The notes under the pieces: model-generated
The model's input: the letters and a program-made list of their open reading frames with translations, nothing else
Databases searched by the model: none
Told to the model about the DNA's origin: nothing
Translations under genes and position numbers: made by a program
Shown here: positions 43,453 through 53,944 of the stretch, piece after piece
Layout of the letters: the number at the start of each line of letters is the position of its first letter
Numbering within the stretch: the stretch's first letter is position 1
Assembly (NCBI GenBank): GCA_963816735.1
Contig: CAWFLY010000005.1
Coordinates: 294,539-358,538, forward strand
DNA length: 64,000 nt
Source of the DNA: an uncultured Actinomycetes bacterium
Lineage (GTDB): Bacteria > Actinomycetota > Thermoleophilia > Gaiellales > Gaiellaceae
Direction of reading: 5' to 3'

Positions 43453-43968
43453 CTAGCTCGCGACCGGTGCGGGTGCTGCGGCCTCGGCCTGCTTGACGCT
43501 GTCACTGTCGACCTCGTGCTTCGAGACCTTGTCGGCCTTCGGCAGCGCCTTCTCGATGTCGGCGGCCGAGCCCTCCTCGAACAACGCCACGATGGCGGAG
43601 CTTCCGGGCGGAACATCGTCCGCGACCTCGGCCTTGATCTCCTTCTTCTCGTGATGCGAGACGAGACCGCCGGTGGCGGCGCCGATGCCGGCGCCTACGG
43701 CTCCCGCTGCGAGGAACGCCGGCGGGAAGATCAGACCGATGAGCAGGCCGCCGGCGGCGCCGATGGCCGTGCCGACGCCGACCGTGTGGGCGGTGTCCTT
43801 CTCGTGGATCTTCCCGTCGGTGTCGCGGCTGACGAGCACGAGGCCGTCGACCGCGATCGTCCTGTCCTTCGCCAACTCCTTGATGTCGTCCCAGTCGGCC
43901 TGGGCGGCGTCCGGGTCGGCGTACGCGGCGATGTACAGAAAAGTGGGGGTGTCGCTGTCAGATCCCAT
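43453..43968 (-). CDS. DUF1269-like membrane protein (glycine-zipper)
   Basis: FLYIAAYADPDAAQADWDDI, DGLVLVSRDTDGKIH, a Gly-zipper GVGTAIGAAGGLLIG...GAVGAGIGAATGG, and SSAIVALFE. ATG 43968 has a GAGGAG SD. Confidence 0.65.
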   Translation of the reverse strand: MGSDSDTPTFLYIAAYADPDAAQADWDDIKELAKDRTIAVDGLVLVSRDTDGKIHEKDTAHTVGVGTAIGAAGGLLIGLIFPPAFLAAGAVGAGIGAATGGLVSHHEKKEIKAEVADDVPPGSSAIVALFEEGSAADIEKALPKADKVSKHEVDSDSVKQAEAAAPAPVAS

Positions 43969-44116
43969 GGGATCTCCTCTCGGTTGTAGTCCCTCTCCCC
44001 GAAACGTCTCACCTTCTGGGCCGTGGTTTGCGGGAACGAGGGTCAATCACCCTGGTGATTCCGATTTCCCCGCCGTGCCGGTACCCGCGGCCGTGTGAAA
44101 GGCTCCGAGCTGACTC

Positions 44117-45175
44117 ATGAGCCAACCCACGAAGATGTTTTCGGTCAATCGGAAGGCATTCAGTCTTCCCGCCGGCGTGGCCATCGGCGGAATCCTGCTG
44201 CTGATCTGGTTCGCCATCGCCGAGCTCGACCAACAGAAGTACGTCGTCAGCGTCATCTTCGCCGTCCTGACGACGGCCCTGAGCGACCCGGGCGGTGGAT
44301 ACCCGAAGCGGGCGCTGAGCATGGGTGCCTTCGGCCTCGGCGGTGCGGCGGTGACCGCCGTGGCGTTCTCCGTCGGAACTCACGCCTGGGGACTCGTGGT
44401 GCTCGCCCTCTTCGTGGTCACGTTGTCGGCCGGGTTGGCGGTGAAGTTCGGACTGCATCGATTCAGCGTGGGGTTATTGCTCAACATCTGGTTCGTCGTC
44501 GCTGTCTTCCTGCCGGTCAGTTACCGCGCCGCTCACGTCAAGACCACCGGCTGGGACCAGGCGCTGGCATGGCTGATCGGATCGGCATCGTGGATCGCGT
44601 TGATGGGCATCGTGTGGTTGCTGAGCAGGTGCAAATGGAAGCCGCGTCCGGTCATCGACCTCCCCGGTGAGCCCTTCGCCCCGGTCAAGCTCAGCCGACC
44701 CGTGGTGCTCTTCGCCCTCATCCGGGCCCTGGCCCTCGCAGCATCCGCCGCCATCGCCTACGGGTTCCACGAACCGAACGCAGATTGGATGGTGATCGCC
44801 ACCTTGATCGCGATGAAGCCGAGCCTCGAGCAGTCGAGGCTGGTGGGCCGTCAGCGCGTGATCGGCGCGGCCATGGGCGCGCTCGTGGCCATACCGATCT
44901 TGCTGGCAGTCCACGACAAGGACGCCTTGGTCGTGATCATCATCCTCCTGGCCGCGCTCGGGGCGTCCATCCACGGCGTGAACTACGCCTACTACACGGC
45001 TGCCATCGCCAGTGCGGCGCTCATCGCCGCAGACCTGCCACACCCCACCAACTATGCGGCCGAGGGTCGCCGGGTGCTCTTCACGTTCATCGGCGTGGGG
45101 ATCGCCGTGGTGGTCATGTTCATTGCGGACCGGATGAAAGAACGTTCGGCAACGGCCGCGCCGGCACCCGCGTGA
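44117..45175 (+). CDS. FUSC-like (aromatic acid exporter family) membrane protein
   Basis: Intact 352 aa, multi-TM, WMVIATLIAMKPSLEQSRLVGRQRVIGAAMGALVA. Confidence 0.6.
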   Translation: MSQPTKMFSVNRKAFSLPAGVAIGGILLLIWFAIAELDQQKYVVSVIFAVLTTALSDPGGGYPKRALSMGAFGLGGAAVTAVAFSVGTHAWGLVVLALFVVTLSAGLAVKFGLHRFSVGLLLNIWFVVAVFLPVSYRAAHVKTTGWDQALAWLIGSASWIALMGIVWLLSRCKWKPRPVIDLPGEPFAPVKLSRPVVLFALIRALALAASAAIAYGFHEPNADWMVIATLIAMKPSLEQSRLVGRQRVIGAAMGALVAIPILLAVHDKDALVVIIILLAALGASIHGVNYAYYTAAIASAALIAADLPHPTNYAAEGRRVLFTFIGVGIAVVVMFIADRMKERSATAAPAPA

Positions 45176-45200
45176 GTCTCAGGCGCGGTGTTCTCTAGCG

Positions 45201-45908
45201 TCAGGGCGGGCCAGGCAGCGAGAGGATCTGTTCGGCCGCCAGGAGCAGCAACAACGCGCCTGTTGCGAGCAACCCGTACCGCACACCGCGTGACGAGAAC
45301 TGGGTGCTGATGCCGACGAGGAAGAGCACGCTCGCGAGGACAAGGGTTACGCGCACGTAGTTGTCGCCCGTTCCTGCCGCATTTTGGCCCTGCGCGTAGT
45401 ACGCGTCGGCCTGCGAGTCGAGCGAACGCGAAAGGGCCTCCCCGATCGGTTTGTACTGCGGCATCGACTGCGGTCCCGGCGGCGCGTTCGGGTTCGTGAA
45501 CGGGTGGGTCGCAAGCCAGGCGACGAAAGCGACCTCGAACTGAGGTGGGAAGCGCTTCTCGGCCACGCGCATGCCGTTCTTGTTGCCGGCGATGTAGGCG
45601 CCGAACCAGGCGTTGAAGAGGAGCGCGTCTGCGGTGCGGTAGCCCAGCCCCTCCTGGAAGTAGCGGTTGGCCTTGGTCCGCGTCGCCGACGCCTTGGCGA
45701 GGTTCAGCGACGACTCGGTGCCCCACTTCGCGGCCGAGTAGCCGGACCAGGCCGCAGTGATGGTCACGATCGAGAGCAGCACTGCCCCGGCAAGCGAGAT
45801 CACCCGGTCGTGGCGGCTCGCCCCGGTGTGTCCGTTGGCGTGCTTGGCGTGCTTGGCGTGCTCGCCGATCTCCTTGCCGACCTCAGTTGCAGATAGCCCC
45901 TCGGGCAT
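45201..45908 (-). CDS. DUF4337-like membrane protein
   Basis: EVGKEIGEHAKHAKHANGH..RVISLAGAVLLSIVTITAAWSGYSAAKW, plus a C-terminal TM. The internal ATG 45908 is preferred. Confidence 0.5.
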   Translation of the reverse strand: MPEGLSATEVGKEIGEHAKHAKHANGHTGASRHDRVISLAGAVLLSIVTITAAWSGYSAAKWGTESSLNLAKASATRTKANRYFQEGLGYRTADALLFNAWFGAYIAGNKNGMRVAEKRFPPQFEVAFVAWLATHPFTNPNAPPGPQSMPQYKPIGEALSRSLDSQADAYYAQGQNAAGTGDNYVRVTLVLASVLFLVGISTQFSSRGVRYGLLATGALLLLLAAEQILSLPGPP

Positions 45909-46008
45909 GACGGCTCCGTTCTCGGTTCGCAGTCGACGGACCTGTGCGGCGAACAGGGTCAGACCGCCACGCGGCGGATCTGACCCTGTCATCGAGAGGC
46001 GCTGAAGG

Positions 46009-46341
46009 CTAGGCCTCCTGCGTCTCGTCGGTCTCGAGCTCAGCGAGGTCGATCGCGATGCCGAGCGCGCGCACGATGTTGCCCGTCGCCGACGCGACGC
46101 GTGCCGTTCCCACGATGGGCGCGATCGCAGTGAGGATGCCGCGAACGTCGTCCGCGTCGACGTCGAAGTCGGCGGCCGTGCCGAGGTTGTACAAGTATGA
46201 GACCGGCGGAGCGTCCATCGCCACGAGGGCGGCGATGCGTACGAGCATGACCTGCTCGGGATCGAGGGTCGTCGCCTCGATCGAGTCGGCGGTCATGCTG
46301 GCGAGCAGATCGAGGACTGGTGTCTCGGTCAGTTCCGGCAT
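46009..46341 (-). CDS. Carboxymuconolactone decarboxylase/AhpD-like small protein
   Basis: 111 aa from the ATG with an AAGGAG SD. MLVRIAALVAMDAPPVSY...DVRGILTAIAPIVGTARV. Confidence 0.55.
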   Translation of the reverse strand: MPELTETPVLDLLASMTADSIEATTLDPEQVMLVRIAALVAMDAPPVSYLYNLGTAADFDVDADDVRGILTAIAPIVGTARVASATGNIVRALGIAIDLAELETDETQEA

Positions 46342-46468
46342 GAGGATCTCCTTGTCTCGACGAGCTGTGCGGTCGTCGACGCCGCTACACGGCCCGAAGG
46401 ACCGTCTGCTTGGGGCACGCTCGACGTTACGCCGTCGGCCTCGCGGACGGGCGGGAGGCCGGCCGGAT

Positions 46469-48799
46469 TCACTCAGGTGAACGCGAACGACCGGCTTCAG
46501 CTCGCCCCAGCAGGCCGAGCGCGGTCGCGCGCGCGACGGCATCGGGGCGGGAGTTCGCGCCGAGCTTGCGGTAGAGCGCACGCGTGTGCGACCGGATCGT
46601 GTTGGGGGAGACGAACAGGTGCTCCCCGATCTCACGTGTCGACAGATCGCCGGCCAGCAGCCGGAGGACGGCGAGCTCCGCCTTGCTCGGTCGTTCGAGC
46701 ATCTCTCCGCTGTCGGCGTGAGCCGTTGCCGTCCCGAGCTCCTGTTCGACGTCCTCGACCAACGAGGCTAGTCGGCCGCCGTCCGGGAGCTCCTCGAGTG
46801 CTTTCCGTGCCGCTTGGAGAGTGGCATCCGCCCGGTCGAGGCGGCCGCGTTGGGTTTGCACCCTGGCGAGAAGCACGAGCAGCCAGGCGTGGTGGACGGT
46901 GGCGATCTCGTCCCTGAAGTAGTGCTCCGCGTAGGAGAGCTCGTGCTCGGCCTCCGCGAGCTTTCCCTCGCTTGCGAGGACGGCGCCGAGCGCCGTGGAC
47001 GCGTTTGCGCCGAGCCAGCTGCGGCTGGTGCCGATCCGGCCGACGACCGCCTTCGCCCTCTCGGCATGGCCCCGTGCGGACTCGAGCCACCCGCGCTCGA
47101 CCGCCACGAGCGCCAGTGTCGTCCGGGCGAGCGCATGGCTGGGAGGGCGGTGCTCGATGCTCGGATGCTCGATGACACTGAGGGCGACCTTCCACGCTTC
47201 GTCGAGGCTGCCCGCGAAGTAGAGAGCGAGCGCATACCCGGCAAGGGCGCCCGTGAGGAGCTCGTCCAACCCGGTACGGGCGAGCTCGACCGCGCGACGG
47301 CCGTCCTCGACCGCCCGTGCGACGCCTCCGTCGATCGTGATCGCGCGTTCCACCAGGGCGAACGCTTCGACGTACGGCGTAACACGCTCGGGGCGCTCTG
47401 CCTGCGCCCGCTCGACGATCCGAAGATACCGACGGTGCTCGATGGTGCCCTGACCGGCCATCACCGCGGCCGCCGCGGCGGCTACGGCGAGCTCCGGATG
47501 CTCGAGGACGTTCTCGTCCGGGAGCGGCCGAACCCATCGCAGCAACGTCCTCGTGAGTCCGCTCCTGATCAGCGGCATGTGGTGCTCGGCGAGCAACCGC
47601 GCAACGAGCTCGTCGTCACCCGCCGCAGCGGCGTGCTCGACCGCCTCCACCGGCAGTCCTTGCGACAACAGCCAGTCGGCGGCGCGCAGATGGATCCGTG
47701 CCGCCTCGCCCGGCTTCTGCGCTGAGAATTGAGCAACGGCGAACTCGGCAAACAATGCGTGGGCACGGAACCAGCCCCCTCGCTCCAGCCGGTGGATGAA
47801 CAGGTTCGAGCGCTCCAAGCCGGCCAGTACGGACGCCGAGTCGGTGCGCTCGAGCACAGCGTCGCAGAGTTCGGCGGTGAATCGGCCCAGAACCGAGGCT
47901 CCTTGCAGGAACGAGCGAGTCTCGTCGTCGAGCGACGCGAGGACTTCCTGGCTCAGGTACTCGACCACGAAGCGCTGGTCTCCCCCGAACCCGGACACGG
48001 CCTGGCGCGGGTCATCGACGCCCCGAAGCCAGAGCCCGGCGAGGACGAGCGCAGCGGGCCAGCCCTCGGTCTTCTCGACAAGCAGCTCGATCTCCTCCGC
48101 TCGGAGCTCGACCTGCCCTCGCTCGACGACCAGCTCGTGCGCCTCCGCGGCGGTGAAGGCCAGCTCGTCGGCACGCAGTTCCACGAGAGCGCCCCGAGCA
48201 CGCAGCCGCGCCAACCCGAGCCCGGGATCTGCCCGCGTGATGGCGAGGATGCGTGCGCTCGCCGGCAGATGTCTGAGCGCGAAGTCGATCGAGGCAAGAC
48301 ACTCCCGATCCGTCACCGCCTGAAGGTCGTCGAGCACGAGAGCCATCCCGGTGCCGTACGCGGCGATTGCGTTCATCAGCTCGTCGACGGCATGTTCGAG
48401 GGAGCTCCCCGCCACGCTCAGGGTCTGCAACGCGCTCCGCCCGAGCCCCTGCCGAACCCGATCGACGGCAGTCGCGACATACGTCCACAGCCGAACCGGA
48501 TCGTTGTCACCGTCGTCGAGCGTGACCCACGCGAGGGCGCCCTCCCGGTTCTCGCACCAGGCGCGCACCGCGGTCGTCTTGCCGTAGCCCGCCGGCGCCG
48601 CAACGAGCGTCAGTGGCACGCCTTCGCCCGCGTTGAGCGCCTGCAGAATGCGCGGCCGTTTGACGTGGTCACCACCCGCTCCCGGGGGCTGGAGCTTGGC
48701 CTCGACCAATGGCGGATTGTCGCCTGCTTCTCGGCGGCTACGCCGACCCTTCGCCAGCTCACGTGAATCCATCACCGTCATCGTGACGATTATTGCCAA
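46469..48799 (-). CDS. LuxR-family (LAL/MalT-like) regulator: ATPase, TPR-like and HTH domains
   Basis: Intact 776 aa. Walker A APAGYGKTT, Walker B LVLDDLQ, and the C-terminal LuxR HTH LSTREIGEHLFVSPNTIRSHTRALYRKLG. Confidence 0.85.
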   Translation of the reverse strand: MAIIVTMTVMDSRELAKGRRSRREAGDNPPLVEAKLQPPGAGGDHVKRPRILQALNAGEGVPLTLVAAPAGYGKTTAVRAWCENREGALAWVTLDDGDNDPVRLWTYVATAVDRVRQGLGRSALQTLSVAGSSLEHAVDELMNAIAAYGTGMALVLDDLQAVTDRECLASIDFALRHLPASARILAITRADPGLGLARLRARGALVELRADELAFTAAEAHELVVERGQVELRAEEIELLVEKTEGWPAALVLAGLWLRGVDDPRQAVSGFGGDQRFVVEYLSQEVLASLDDETRSFLQGASVLGRFTAELCDAVLERTDSASVLAGLERSNLFIHRLERGGWFRAHALFAEFAVAQFSAQKPGEAARIHLRAADWLLSQGLPVEAVEHAAAAGDDELVARLLAEHHMPLIRSGLTRTLLRWVRPLPDENVLEHPELAVAAAAAAVMAGQGTIEHRRYLRIVERAQAERPERVTPYVEAFALVERAITIDGGVARAVEDGRRAVELARTGLDELLTGALAGYALALYFAGSLDEAWKVALSVIEHPSIEHRPPSHALARTTLALVAVERGWLESARGHAERAKAVVGRIGTSRSWLGANASTALGAVLASEGKLAEAEHELSYAEHYFRDEIATVHHAWLLVLLARVQTQRGRLDRADATLQAARKALEELPDGGRLASLVEDVEQELGTATAHADSGEMLERPSKAELAVLRLLAGDLSTREIGEHLFVSPNTIRSHTRALYRKLGANSRPDAVARATALGLLGRAEAGRSRSPE

Positions 48800-48886
48800 C
48801 TGACGGCTACCGGCAGGTTAGGGCAGCCCCTGGTGTAGTCGTGGTGTCTGCAGGCGTCCGGTGTCCGTGGATTCCCGGATGCCGAG

Positions 48887-48967
48887 GCGATCGGAATCAC
48901 CAGGGTGATCGGCCTGCGCCTGTCGTGAGCGCCCGGCGGGAGGTGCCATCCTCGGAGCTGTGCCCGG
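48887..48967 (+). repeat. 81-bp conserved non-coding element, copy 1
   Basis: Aligns without gaps to 49579-49659 at 69 of 81 positions. Contains the 14-bp palindrome ATCACCAGGGTGAT (48896-48909) and an SD-like GGGAGG. Ends 23 nt before the lipoprotein ATG. Confidence 0.9.
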
Positions 48968-48990
48968 AATCGACCCGAGGAGGTTTCACG

Positions 48991-49575
48991 ATGACCGTTG
49001 ACCGGAGTGGACAAAGGTCTCCCGCCCGCAGCTGGGCTACCGCCGTGCCGATGCTGGCACTGTTCGCCGTCCTGGCTCTCGTCGCCGCGGGCTGTGGTGG
49101 CAGCAGCAGCTCCGACACGAAGGCGAACGACGCCTACGCGAGCGGCGTTTGCAGCGCAATCGGCACCTGGGTGCAGCAGATCAAGAGCATCACCTCGAGC
49201 GGCTTCACCGGCGGCATCTCCAAGGCAACACTGGACTCGAAGATCGCCCAGGCGGAGACCGCCACCAAGACACTCGCGAAGCAGATCAAGGCCGTTCCCC
49301 CTCCCAATACCTCGGACGGGCAGGCGGCGAAGGCGCAGGTCGATCAGTTCTCGAGCGATGCGGCGAGCACGGCCAGTACCGCACAAACCGCCGTCGCCTC
49401 TATCCCGGCCGACGCCTCGGCCACGACGGTCGCGGTGGCGCTCCTACCGCTCGCGCCGCAGGTCAAGAGCCTCGTGACCACGGCACAGACGACAATCACG
49501 TCGCTCCAGACGGCGAAGAACTCGCTCGCCTCGGCCTTCAAGAGCGCCGACTCCTGCCAGAGCCTCGGCGGCTAG
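48991..49575 (+). CDS. Lipoprotein (lipobox LVAAGC), Ala/Ser/Thr-rich
   Basis: AVPMLALFAVLALVAAGCGGSSSS. ATG 48991 has a GAGGAGG SD. Confidence 0.65.
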   Translation: MTVDRSGQRSPARSWATAVPMLALFAVLALVAAGCGGSSSSDTKANDAYASGVCSAIGTWVQQIKSITSSGFTGGISKATLDSKIAQAETATKTLAKQIKAVPPPNTSDGQAAKAQVDQFSSDAASTASTAQTAVASIPADASATTVAVALLPLAPQVKSLVTTAQTTITSLQTAKNSLASAFKSADSCQSLGG

Positions 49576-49578
49576 CGG

Positions 49579-49659
49579 GCAATCGGAATCATCAGGGTGA
49601 TCGGCTCCCTCCCGTCGTGAGCCCGCGGCGGGAGGTGCCATCCTCGGTGACGTGCCCGG
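49579..49659 (+). repeat. 81-bp conserved non-coding element, copy 2
   Basis: See copy 1. Its 3' end overlaps the GTG start (49652) of the small ORF. CCTCCCG (49608-49614) is complementary to CGGGAGG (49629-49635). Confidence 0.9.
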
Positions 49660-49882
49660 CAGGACGTATCGGCTGATCGTCGCAGGGGAGCTCAGCGACC
49701 AGGTGGGGGCCGCCTTCGAGGGCATGACCCTCACGCGCGCCGACGGGACGACGACGTTGAGCGGACACATCCGCGACCAGTCGCAGCTGCAGGGTCTGCT
49801 GCAGCGCGTCTCCGATCTCGGGCTCACCCTGCTCGAGGTGAAAGGCTCCGAGGCCGAGCCGCCAATAGGATCGCCGTCGTGA
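49652..49882 (+). CDS. Small conserved-looking hypothetical protein (76 aa)
   Basis: YRLIVAGELSDQVGAAFEGMTLTRADGTTTLSGHIRDQSQLQGLLQRVSDLGLTLLEV. Its stop overlaps the MFS GTG start (GTGA). Confidence 0.5.
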   Translation: MPGRTYRLIVAGELSDQVGAAFEGMTLTRADGTTTLSGHIRDQSQLQGLLQRVSDLGLTLLEVKGSEAEPPIGSPS

Positions 49883-51519
49883 CGACCGCACCGACTGCGT
49901 CCTCGGTAGCTGCCAAGGCTTCCGGTCTCGTACTGCTCACGCTGGCATCGGCGCAGTTCGTCATGGCCCTGGACATGACGGTGATGAACACGGCTATCGC
50001 GACGGTCGCCAAAGACGTCGGGACCGATGTGACCGGGATCCAGCTGGCGATCACGCTCTACACGCTGGTGATGGCGTCGTTCATGATCACCGGCGGCAGG
50101 GTCGGGGAGATCATCGGCCGGAAGCGCGCGTTCACGATCGGGTGCGTCGTCTACGCGTGCGGGTCGCTCACGACGGCGCTGTCTCACAGCCTGACGGTGC
50201 TGATCATCGGCTGGTCGTTCCTGGAGGGCTTCGGCGCGGTGCTGATCTTTCCGGCGATCGTCGCGCTCGTCGCCTCGAACTTCGGCAAGCCGGACCGGCC
50301 GCGCGCGTACGGGCTCGTGGCTGCCGCCGGCGCGATGGCCGCCGCGGTCGGGCCGGTGATCGGCGGCTTCTTCACGAGTTATGCGTCGTGGCGGTGGGTG
50401 TTCGTCAGCGAGGTGCTGATCGTGATCGTGATTCTCGCCCTCGCGCGGCGGGTGAACGACACACCGCCCGAGAAGGGCGCCAGGCTCGACCTGGTCGGCA
50501 CGGCACTGTCGGCCGCCGGCCTCGGCCTGATCGTGATCGGCACCTTGAAGTCGGGTGCGTGGGGGTTCGTGCGGGCCAAGTCGGGTGCTCCCGAGTGGCT
50601 CGGGCTCTCACCGGTGATCTGGCTTGTGCTTGCGGGCTGCGTGGTGGTTGGCCTGTTCGCGATGTGGGAGAACCGGCGGATCGCCCGCGGCCAGGCTGCG
50701 CTGATCGACCCGAAGATGCTGCGGAACATCCAGCTGCGCGACGGCGTCACGTCGTTCTTCTTCCTGTTCCTCGTGCAGGCCGGGATCTTCTTCGTCGTGC
50801 CGCTGTTCCTGTCGGTCGCGCTCGGTATGTCGGCGGTCGCGACGGGCATGCATCTGCTGCCGCTCTCGCTGATGTTGCTGCTCTTCGCGGCCGGAGTCCC
50901 CAAGGTGTTCCCGCACGCGAACCCGCGGCTGGTGATCCGGCTCGGCTTCATCGCCATGTTCGGCGGGCTCGTGCTCCTGCTCGCCTTGCTCGACTACGGC
51001 GCCGGAGCGGCGATCGTCACGTGGCCGCTGCTGCTCGCGGGTGCCGGAATCGGCTCGATCGCCTCCCAGCTGGGAGCCGTGACCGTGTCGTCGGTGCCCG
51101 ACGAGCAGAGCGGCGAGGTCGGCGGAATCCAGAACACCGGCACGCAGCTCGGCGCGTCGATCGGCACGGCGCTGGCGGGCGCCGTGCTCATCTCGGCGCT
51201 GACCGCGTCGTTCATTACCGGCGTCCAGAACAACCCGGCCGTCCCCAACCGCGTCGCCGCCCAGGCTCAGACGAACCTCGCCGGCGGCATCCCGTTCATC
51301 TCCGACGCCGACCTGAAGGCCGCGCTCTCCGACGCGCACGTCCCCCCGCGGACCGCCGACGCGATCGTGCAGACGAACGAGCAGAGCCGGATCGACGGGC
51401 TGCGCGTCGCCGTCTCGATCCTCGCGCTCTTCGCGCTCATCGCCCTGCTGTTCACCGGGGGCATCCCGACAACCCAACCCGGCGCCCAACCCAAACCCAA
51501 GAACACGAAGCGGAGGTGA
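49879..51519 (+). CDS. MFS transporter, DHA2 (EmrB/QacA-like, 14-TMS) family
   Basis: Intact 546 aa: LDMTVMNTAIATVAKDVG, GGRVGEIIGRKRAF, and about 14 hydrophobic segments. Confidence 0.85.
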   Translation: MTTAPTASSVAAKASGLVLLTLASAQFVMALDMTVMNTAIATVAKDVGTDVTGIQLAITLYTLVMASFMITGGRVGEIIGRKRAFTIGCVVYACGSLTTALSHSLTVLIIGWSFLEGFGAVLIFPAIVALVASNFGKPDRPRAYGLVAAAGAMAAAVGPVIGGFFTSYASWRWVFVSEVLIVIVILALARRVNDTPPEKGARLDLVGTALSAAGLGLIVIGTLKSGAWGFVRAKSGAPEWLGLSPVIWLVLAGCVVVGLFAMWENRRIARGQAALIDPKMLRNIQLRDGVTSFFFLFLVQAGIFFVVPLFLSVALGMSAVATGMHLLPLSLMLLLFAAGVPKVFPHANPRLVIRLGFIAMFGGLVLLLALLDYGAGAAIVTWPLLLAGAGIGSIASQLGAVTVSSVPDEQSGEVGGIQNTGTQLGASIGTALAGAVLISALTASFITGVQNNPAVPNRVAAQAQTNLAGGIPFISDADLKAALSDAHVPPRTADAIVQTNEQSRIDGLRVAVSILALFALIALLFTGGIPTTQPGAQPKPKNTKRR

Positions 51520-53872: not shown

Positions 53873-53944
53873 TGCCCCCGGCATGAATCGAACATGCGCA
53901 CGCGGTTTAGGAAACCACTGCTCTATCCACTGAGCTACGGGGGC
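53873..53944 (-). tRNA. tRNA-Arg (anticodon CCU), 72 nt, CCA not encoded
   Basis: Minus-strand fold: GCCCCCG-TA-GCTC-AGTGGATA-GAGC-A-GTGGT-TTCCTAA-ACCGC-GTGC-GCATG-TTCGATT-CATGC-CGGGGGC-A. All four stems pair (one G-U). Confidence 0.9.

Follow-up and report, generated by a model that had tools for sequence, protein, structure and literature searches.

The window, the whole stretch of DNA analysed here, comprises 64,000 nucleotides of contig CAWFLY010000005.1 (positions 294,539 to 358,538 of the forward strand; assembly GCA_963816735.1) from an uncultured Actinomycetes bacterium of the Gaiellaceae. It contains two 81-bp elements in direct orientation, designated copy 1 and copy 2, beside a divergent gene for a large ATP-binding regulator of the LuxR family (LAL), and these elements, their relatives and their probable function are the subject of this study.

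Repeats and genes in the window

Copy 1 (48887-48967) and copy 2 (49579-49659) align without gaps at 69 of 81 positions. The similarity starts and ends abruptly and in register at both edges, between unrelated flanks (blastn within the window, E = 8.6e-20), and the copies lie 692 bp apart. The block GGCGGGAGGTGCCATCCTCGG occurs exactly twice in the window, as compared with 0.02 occurrences expected, and the 14-bp palindrome ATCACCAGGGTGAT is located at 48896-48909, with a C-to-T variant at 49588-49601 in copy 2. A preliminary description of this DNA had reported the pair of repeats with unrelated flanks, the palindrome with its single change, and the placement of copy 1 at 23 nt before a lipoprotein gene and of copy 2 over the start of an operon of a small open reading frame (ORF) and an MFS pump, with the 776-aa regulator adjoining; all of this was borne out. 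The genes concerned are the following.

46469-48781, minus strand: divergent gene of the MalT-like LAL regulator, 776 aa, with an AAA_16/STAND NTPase N-terminal part and a C-terminal GerE helix-turn-helix (HTH)
48991-49575, plus strand: lipoprotein gene, ATG at 48991 and 23 nt past copy 1, 194 aa, lipobox VAAGC; predicted target of copy 1
49652-49882, plus strand: small ORF, 76 aa, GTG at 49652 within copy 2; its stop codon overlaps the MFS GTG at 49879 by 4 nt
49879-51519, plus strand: DHA2-family MFS efflux pump (Pfam MFS_1, 2.4e-45; TIGR00711 EmrB, 8.6e-45), downstream in the putative copy-2 transcription unit
43453-43968, minus strand: DUF1269/glycine-zipper membrane protein gene (Pfam DUF1269, 4e-11); predicted target of the class A promoter described below

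We found that the 5' part of the repeat is present a third time in the window, in a copy that does not appear in the preliminary description. The in-window blastn located AAATCGGAATCACCAGGGTGAT at 44046-44067 on the minus strand, with an exact 20-mer common to copy 1; the minus-strand DUF1269 gene begins 78 nt downstream of it, at 43968, and a divergent FUSC-like gene is 51 nt away. This third copy has the 5' block of copies 1 and 2 and lacks the GGCGGGAGG...CATCCT block. When a position weight matrix, built from all instances found in the window and in the relatives, was scanned over the 64-kb window, the three sites scored about 50-53 bits each (copy 1, ~50 bits; copy 2, 52.7 bits; third operator, 51.7 bits), and the next-best position reached 5 bits.

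Operator and promoter architecture in related genomes

The exact pattern AATCGGAATCAYCAGGGTGAT was scanned against one genome per species in 185,579 species. The 21-mer (R)ATCGGAATCAYCAGGGTGAT was found at 15 loci (cited below by L-numbers where they must be told apart) in about 11 species of "uncultured Actinomycetes", all metagenome-assembled genomes (MAGs) of the Microflora Danica (MFD) series, and all 15 loci lie inside one syntenic cluster. The order in this cluster is DUF2252, DUF1269, an operator site between divergent genes, FUSC-like, a membrane ORF, an ORF weakly resembling carboxymuconolactone decarboxylase (CMD), LAL, copy 1 between divergent genes, lipoprotein, copy 2, small ORF, MFS and BrkB. 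A relaxed-pattern and positional search within these loci brought the collection to 29 instances, which fall into six promoter contexts. Copy 1 precedes the lipoprotein gene in 10 species, and copy 2 precedes the small ORF in 9 species (the exact 21-mer standing at the same position in 8 species beyond that of the window); class A, to which the third window copy belongs (orthologous sites in L007, L008, L009 and L013), and class D, in another lineage, both lie upstream of DUF1269; class C lies upstream of DUF2252 in three species without copy 2; and class B2 precedes a paralogous small ORF. Each genome carries 3-4 operator copies, all within the one cluster. In 9 species with 75-97% protein identity, copies 1 and 2 both remain at orthologous positions, and within one genome they agree at 61-73 of 81 positions. 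On these comparisons the element is judged old and conserved. The preliminary description had taken an absence of further copies and of conservation in relatives as the sign of a simple recent local duplication; the third window copy and the 29 instances supply both, and conservation across species contradicts a duplication of that kind.

The operator was absent near more distant homologues of the lipoprotein (58-68% identity), which occupy other contexts, and a metagenome scan with the LAL protein retrieved one rearranged locus, L022 (74% identity), without the operator, so that the module seems to be confined to a narrow clade; another locus, L023, is a repeat of the L001/L010 lineage. L001 and L023 carry an insertion between LAL and the promoter of copy 1, made up of a TMEM175-like gene and an ORF of 68 aa. 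The gap between the lipoprotein gene and the small ORF is only 3-20 nt (6 nt in L001) in the species with class C sites, namely the L001/L023 lineage, L005 and L011, and since these close-spaced species lack copy 2, this copy represents a lineage-specific gain or loss. The loci L016-L018 (for example, L017 478-6552) hold a paralogous cluster with DUF2252, DUF1622, MIP, BrkB, an ion channel, DUF7144 and a lipoprotein homologue, in which another LuxR-type regulator (PAS_4 plus GerE, 204 aa) replaces LAL and the operator is absent; two intergenic regions of this cluster show recurring strings, GATCACCCCGATCGG and ATCGGGGTG. Blocks resembling the extended -10 block described below, without an upstream operator, were seen as AGGTGC-GAATAT about 75 nt upstream of the lipoprotein homologue in L019-L021 and as GGGAGGTGC-CACTGT in L022 (897-911), and could belong to related promoters from which the regulator site has been lost or was always missing.

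Alignment of the 29 instances gave an operator consensus of about 30 bp, GGGC-RATCGGAATCAYC-AG-GGTGATYGRCCC, the right part of which can be written GGTGAT-YGRCCC, and which has the identical orientation in every instance. The inverted repeat AATCAYC-AG-GGTGATY inside it is near-invariant; its core ATCACC-AG-GGTGAT has six of six complementary positions, and in class A the complementarity extends to seven (AATCACC/GGTGATT). From the operator, 32 nt of spacer (33 nt in two cases), almost wholly different in sequence between classes, lead to a TG motif, where (R)GTGC is followed by a hexamer of the form nAnnnT (CATCCT, CATTCT, CATATT, AACGTT, GACGTT or GAGTTT). A purine stands 7 nt past the hexamer in every class, usually as the G of a GTG and, in three copy-1 orthologues (L006, L007 and L012), as the first base of an ATG. 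Between the operator and this purine, the only invariant columns are an A at about -32 (A46), T62, G63, A66 and T70. With the purine taken as +1, the ANNNT motif falls at -12 to -8 and the centre of the inverted repeat at about -57.5, and the motif RTG-NYC-GG is conserved at +1 of all promoter classes. The features of the three window sites are listed below.

48885-48915, plus strand: copy 1 operator, GGC GATCGGAATCACCAGGGTGAT CGGCCT; 21-mer at 48889-48909, repeat AATCACC-AG-GGTGATC, near-invariant core in 10 orthologous copy-1 sites
48923-48928, plus strand: copy 1 weak -35-like region, TCGTGA; holds the invariant A at about -32, and its remainder matches TTGACA poorly
48942-48952, plus strand: copy 1 extended -10, GGTGC CATCCT; one base separates the TG from the hexamer, whose positions 2 and 6 are A and T
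48960-48962, plus strand: copy 1 predicted start, GTG, followed by a 31-nt leader with the Shine-Dalgarno sequence GAGGAGG
49577-49607, plus strand: copy 2 operator, GGGC AATCGGAATCATCAGGGTGAT CGGCTC; 21-mer at 49581-49601, starting 2 nt past the lipoprotein stop codon
49634-49644, plus strand: copy 2 extended -10, GGTGC CATCCT
44042-44070, minus strand: third operator (class A), GGGA AATCGGAATCACCAGGGTGAT TGAC; 21-mer at 44046-44066, between the divergent DUF1269 and FUSC-like genes
44003-44013, minus strand: class A extended -10, GGTGA GACGTT, with the same 32-nt spacing and TG/A/T invariants as copies 1 and 2

The predicted class A start at about 43995 (minus strand) would leave a 27-nt leader before the ATG at 43968. 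Since the TG and the A and T of the hexamer are, besides a single A, the only invariant columns between the operator and the purine, and since this TG, one base before a hexamer with A second and T sixth, was found across all six promoter contexts, these columns have the signature of an extended -10 promoter. In Mycobacterium smegmatis, 79% of mapped promoters have ANNNT between -13 and -6, with no -35 consensus and with G or A at +1 (PMC6448022). The -35 regions at the present sites are poor (TCGTGA, CGCAAA and TCACAA), so the failure of a canonical sigma-70 consensus scan to find a promoter in 43500-50500 was to be expected. A poor -35 together with a conserved upstream site at fixed distance and orientation is, we infer, the normal look of an activator-dependent promoter, and the weak -35 of copy 1 would fit dependence on either an activator or the extended -10.

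The preliminary description had also singled out GGGAGG, in a block invariant between the two window copies, as a Shine-Dalgarno-like signal, and this did not hold up among the relatives. In copy-1 orthologues the block reads GGAAGATGCC, TGGAAATGAC, GCGAAGTGCC or GGGAGATGCC, so that GGGAGG becomes GGAAGA, TGGAAA or GCGAAG, and the TG and the hexamer A and T are unchanged. Since the purine-rich part varies and TG/A/T is fixed, GGGAGG is neither a conserved Shine-Dalgarno sequence nor an obligatory pairing partner, and the conserved portion of the block is the extended -10. An operator of the extracytoplasmic function (ECF)/SigR type (GGAAT-N18-GTT) was also considered and rejected, as the distance from GGAAT to GTT/CGT ranges from 20 to 27 nt across classes and the palindrome in the supposed spacer is invariant. 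The predicted lipoprotein leader contains, at 48963-48976, CCCGGAATCGACCC, which repeats the operator half-site CGGAATC and the right-flank string ATCGACCC and of which GGAATC is kept in 7 of 10 copy-1 orthologues; it may offer the regulator a further half-site downstream or be left over from the duplication.

Small ORF start and copy-2 hairpin

The predicted +1 of copy 2 coincides with the G of the GTG at 49652, the first in-frame start of the small ORF. This GTG has no Shine-Dalgarno sequence 5-10 nt upstream (GGGAGG ends 16 nt before it), and the encoded protein is conserved from the GTG on, as VPGRTY(R/Q)(L/V)IVAGELSDQ, even in species without copy 2. Because the predicted +1 is the start codon itself and a Shine-Dalgarno sequence is lacking, the small-ORF mRNA is probably leaderless, as are 24% of transcripts in M. 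smegmatis (PMC6448022). Copies 1 and 2 have the first 8 transcribed bases, GTGCCCGG, in common, and the small ORF at copy 2 opens with them as its first codons; in class D the sequence then reads VVGRTRELIVNEG*, a relic of the small ORF. From the shared GTGCCCGG and the class D relic, the promoters therefore seem to have spread by duplication of a promoter together with the first codons of the leaderless small ORF. A small peptide encoded by the repeat itself was rejected, as the reading frames differ between copies and the copy-1 mini-ORF ranges across species from 5 codons to an in-frame fusion with the lipoprotein. The 76-aa product of the small ORF (VPGRTYRLIVAGELSDQ...LQGLLQRVSDLGLTLLEV) has no match in Pfam, NCBIfam or PDB, and the ORF has at least one paralogue with its own promoter copy (L006, minus strand, ~7494).

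The pairing of CCTCCCG with CGGGAGG in copy 2, pointed out earlier as lacking in copy 1, is real, and it is conserved as part of a longer hairpin that does not belong to the shared element.

49608-49635, plus strand: copy-2-specific hairpin, CCTCCCGTCG / CGGCGGGAGG, 10-12 bp, pairing 49608-49617 with 49626-49635 over the promoter spacer; z = -3.1

All nine copy-2 orthologues carry the stem (10-12 bp; z between -1.7 and -4.9; -20 to -30 kcal/mol), which takes either of two registers, CCTCCCGTCG/CGGCGGGAGG or GCACCTCYCG/CGGGAGGTGC, and in both the variable spacer is complementary to the invariant block. The other classes are mostly without a hairpin; a comparison of copy 2 with copy 1 gave a Mann-Whitney p of 2.6e-4 for sequences that are phylogenetically related and hence not independent. 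Copy 2 is also the only class directly after a gene, its stem lying about 30 nt past the lipoprotein stop codon in 9 of 9 species, and the T-G pairs in copy-2 stems are tolerated only in sense-strand RNA. From these T-G pairs and the place directly after a gene, we read the hairpin as a feature of the lipoprotein transcript, probably a 3' stabilising stem in RNA or a terminator without a U-tract. A further possibility, which we hold to be distinctly unlikely, is that copy 2 is dual-purpose in the full sense, its 45 bp being at once, as DNA, the core of an activator-dependent leaderless promoter and, in the lipoprotein read-through RNA, a hairpin under selection; with this would go the idea that the motif RTG-NYC-GG at +1 marks leaderless mini-ORFs with a part in regulation. 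If this were true, the hairpin would be kept by register-shifting changes against the invariant block upstream of the -10, and would insulate the pump operon from upstream transcription.

Some further features of the locus may be recorded here. Between the membrane ORF and LAL, at 46009-46341 (minus strand), lies a 110-aa ORF with a Shine-Dalgarno sequence of its own, AAGGAG, and a weak, sub-threshold match to the CMD/AhpD-like family (E = 0.0023). The lipoprotein has 405 homologues and falls in no Pfam family. A tRNA gene at 53873-53944 (minus strand; Rfam tRNA, 65 bits) is the sole Rfam family hit in the window. A second kind of palindrome, TTCAC-N4-GTGAA, was seen in three settings: as TTCACCTGAGTGAA over the LAL stop codon (window 46468-46481, minus strand), again as this sequence in L022 (808-821), and as TTCACTCGGGTGAA about 40 nt upstream of copy 1 in L006, L007, L012, L015 and L001, though not in the window.

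Candidate regulator, alternatives and known systems

The protein encoded beside copy 1 matches GerE (7.6e-13), the NCBIfam MalT model (1.4e-101), and the PDB structures of MalT (8bob, 2.7e-52) and GerE (1fse, 1e-5). It is the only gene product of the cluster with a DNA-binding domain, and wherever a locus extends far enough to tell, its gene and the operators are in synteny. GerE-type output domains such as that of NarL bind, as dimers, inverted heptamers 2 bp apart, in the 7-2-7 arrangement (PMC4549865), and LAL and LuxR proteins bind short palindromes (PMC9628970). The present operator has inverted half-sites of 6-7 bp about 2 bp apart, and a GerE regulator is linked to it. Taken together, the repeats are probably paralogous copies of one activator-type promoter module, with the adjacent MalT-like LAL as the candidate regulator, in line with the earlier suggestion of an operator/promoter shared under the LuxR regulator: the near-invariant palindrome in a single orientation, at 32-33 nt from TG-n-nAnnnT, points in that direction. 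We are fairly confident of the operator-plus-promoter part. That LAL is the binding protein appears a reasonable bet, given the 7-2-7 geometry, the sole DNA-binding domain of the cluster and the confinement of the exact 21-mer to it, and activation is slightly favoured over repression.

In the proposed mechanism, each module would consist of a ~30-bp operator with a 7-2-7-style repeat, a 32-33 nt spacer, a poor -35, an extended -10 of the form TG-n-nAnnnT and a purine start 7 nt on. The three window modules would drive the lipoprotein gene (from ~48960), the small-ORF/MFS/BrkB operon (from 49652) and DUF1269 (from ~43995, minus strand). LAL would bind the operator through a GerE-type HTH dimer and, from about -57.5, would activate transcription once a ligand switches on its STAND sensor domain; the GC-rich hairpin of copy 2, in RNA read out from the lipoprotein gene, would leave the pump operon dependent on its own promoter.

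An alternative raised in the preliminary description is a new cis-regulatory leader RNA. As such an RNA, or as a riboswitch, the element would have its transcription start upstream, and an ATCAC-CAGG-GTGAT hairpin, together with pairing between anti-Shine-Dalgarno and Shine-Dalgarno sequences, would control translation or termination of the genes that follow. The operator core can indeed form a 5-bp hairpin, in which the sole variation, C to T, keeps a G-U pair, and copy 2 has its strong hairpin over GGGAGG, kept in two registers. However, a search of the region against Rfam at E <= 10 returned only a spurious H19_2 match (E = 1.4), and the whole window at the gathering threshold gave one tRNA and nothing else. 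RNAalifold on the 29 instances predicted 12 pairs (-5.07 kcal/mol; covariation term, -0.58), only one of which changes on both sides, and four instances break that same pair; copy 1 folds worse than its own shuffles (z = +2.5), and classes A, C and D fold no better than theirs (z from -1.0 to +1.6). Moreover, GGGAGG is not conserved in copy-1 orthologues, the classes share no conserved sequence 5' of the 21-mer, the greater part of the element precedes the predicted start, the small ORF starts within it without a leader, and a fixed-length spacer of free sequence with TG/A/T invariants suits a promoter rather than a folded RNA. We therefore regard a leader RNA as very improbable. A recent functionless local duplication, or a small dispersed repeat of the repetitive extragenic palindromic (REP) or miniature inverted-repeat transposable element (MITE) kind, is even harder to credit and is extremely unlikely. 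The spacing of 692 bp and the GTGCCCGG common to both copies do indicate that the promoters arose by duplication, but their orthologous retention in 9 species and the limited match within a genome mean that this duplication is old and under selection. As for a mobile repeat, the 3-4 copies per genome are not dispersed but stay inside one cluster, three of them in the 64-kb window, and terminal inverted repeats and target-site duplications are lacking.

The remaining alternative keeps the same architecture and assigns it to a regulator encoded elsewhere, or makes LAL a repressor or autoregulator; this we consider rather unlikely. In its favour, LAL is assigned by linkage, MalT boxes are absent, SCO6993, itself a LAL, acts as a repressor and has short palindromes as binding sites (PMC9628970), and the copy-1 operator occupies the intergenic region between the divergent LAL and lipoprotein genes, with 51 nt separating the class A operator from the divergent FUSC-like gene, so that one site could control both directions. 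Against another regulator, the exact 21-mer is found only inside the cluster across the genome collection, where no second gene with a DNA-binding domain is present. Against repression, the site stands upstream of a core promoter with a poor -35, at the fixed distance and orientation usual for an activator. Repressor sites normally overlap the core promoter.

Several observations nevertheless weigh against the activator module with LAL as its regulator. The transcription starts, the identity of the binding protein and the preference for activation over repression are all deduced from the sequences of uncultured MAGs. Activators of class I or class II do not classically centre at -57.5, and the operator is unusually invariant, including its asymmetric central AG and the 5' extension GGGCRATCGG, an invariance not accounted for by a simple symmetric dimer. 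The MalT boxes recognised by MalT in E. coli are asymmetric, and in the window GGGGA(T/G)GAGG, with one mismatch allowed, was found 12 times as compared with 11 expected, with none near 44000 or 48800-49700. GGTGCNANNNT is not enriched in the window (4 found, 4.5 expected); it was thus rejected as a general promoter signature of this genome and taken as specific to these promoters. As the scan was for the exact 21-mer, degenerate sites may exist elsewhere, and with them a regulator encoded elsewhere. Finally, the role of the copy-2 hairpin as a terminator is uncertain, since no U-tract follows the stem (TGCCATCCTCGG stands there) and a terminator scan gave nothing at this position.

On the preferred reading of a LAL-linked promoter module, the analysis assigns a candidate regulon to a MalT-like STAND regulator, hitherto uncharacterised, of an uncultured actinomycete clade from Danish soil, with its parts: an operator of about 30 bp, a fixed geometry to an extended -10, and 3-4 targets per genome (the lipoprotein, the small ORF-MFS-BrkB operon, DUF1269 and DUF2252). 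It also removes a riboswitch lead, as the element would not be a new riboswitch class, and the conservation of the operator is high enough for its direct use as an inducible promoter part. The very high conservation of the site, the leaderless target and the hairpin embedded in one promoter copy are minor curiosities, and nothing here would surprise a specialist in bacterial transcription.

In comparison with known systems, the core promoter resembles the extended -10, leaderless promoters of the actinobacterial SigA type, with ANNNT at -12 to -8, TG one base before the hexamer, no -35 consensus, a purine at +1 and, for the small ORF, a start codon there; unlike in those, the starts here are predicted rather than mapped, and the first base of the hexamer is not T (CATCCT, GACGTT, GAGTTT, AACGTT). 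The operator shares with those of the NarL/DosR/GerE type (NarL, TACCCCT-AA-AGGGGTA) the inverted half-sites of 6-7 bp set 2 bp apart and an adjacent regulator with a GerE HTH. However, the half-site sequence is unrelated, the regulator is of the STAND/MalT type and not a response regulator, and the putative binding site has an asymmetric 5' extension GGGCRATCGG, an invariant central AG, one orientation and a centre at about -57.5. With the E. coli MalT regulon, whose MalT boxes stand before promoters devoid of a -35, it has in common a MalT-like regulator (in the N-terminal two thirds), a poor -35 and a conserved upstream site at fixed distance on several promoters of one small regulon. In contrast to that regulon, no MalT box (GGGGAKGAGG) occurs in or near the elements, the site is an inverted repeat instead of asymmetric boxes, and the predicted targets are membrane and efflux proteins, not maltodextrin genes. 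The cluster-situated LALs of actinomycetes (PikD, NysRI, SCO6993 and others) likewise are large ATP-binding LuxR-family proteins beside their presumed targets, and SCO6993 gives footprints over short palindromes (PMC9628970). Those regulators mostly serve antibiotic biosynthesis and use short, degenerate sites, whereas the present site is about 30 bp and almost invariant and its targets encode a lipoprotein, an MFS pump, BrkB, DUF1269 and DUF2252 proteins. The element is thus most likely ordinary regulatory DNA, a fresh example of a cluster-situated regulon of the LuxR/MalT family with duplicated operator-promoter modules.

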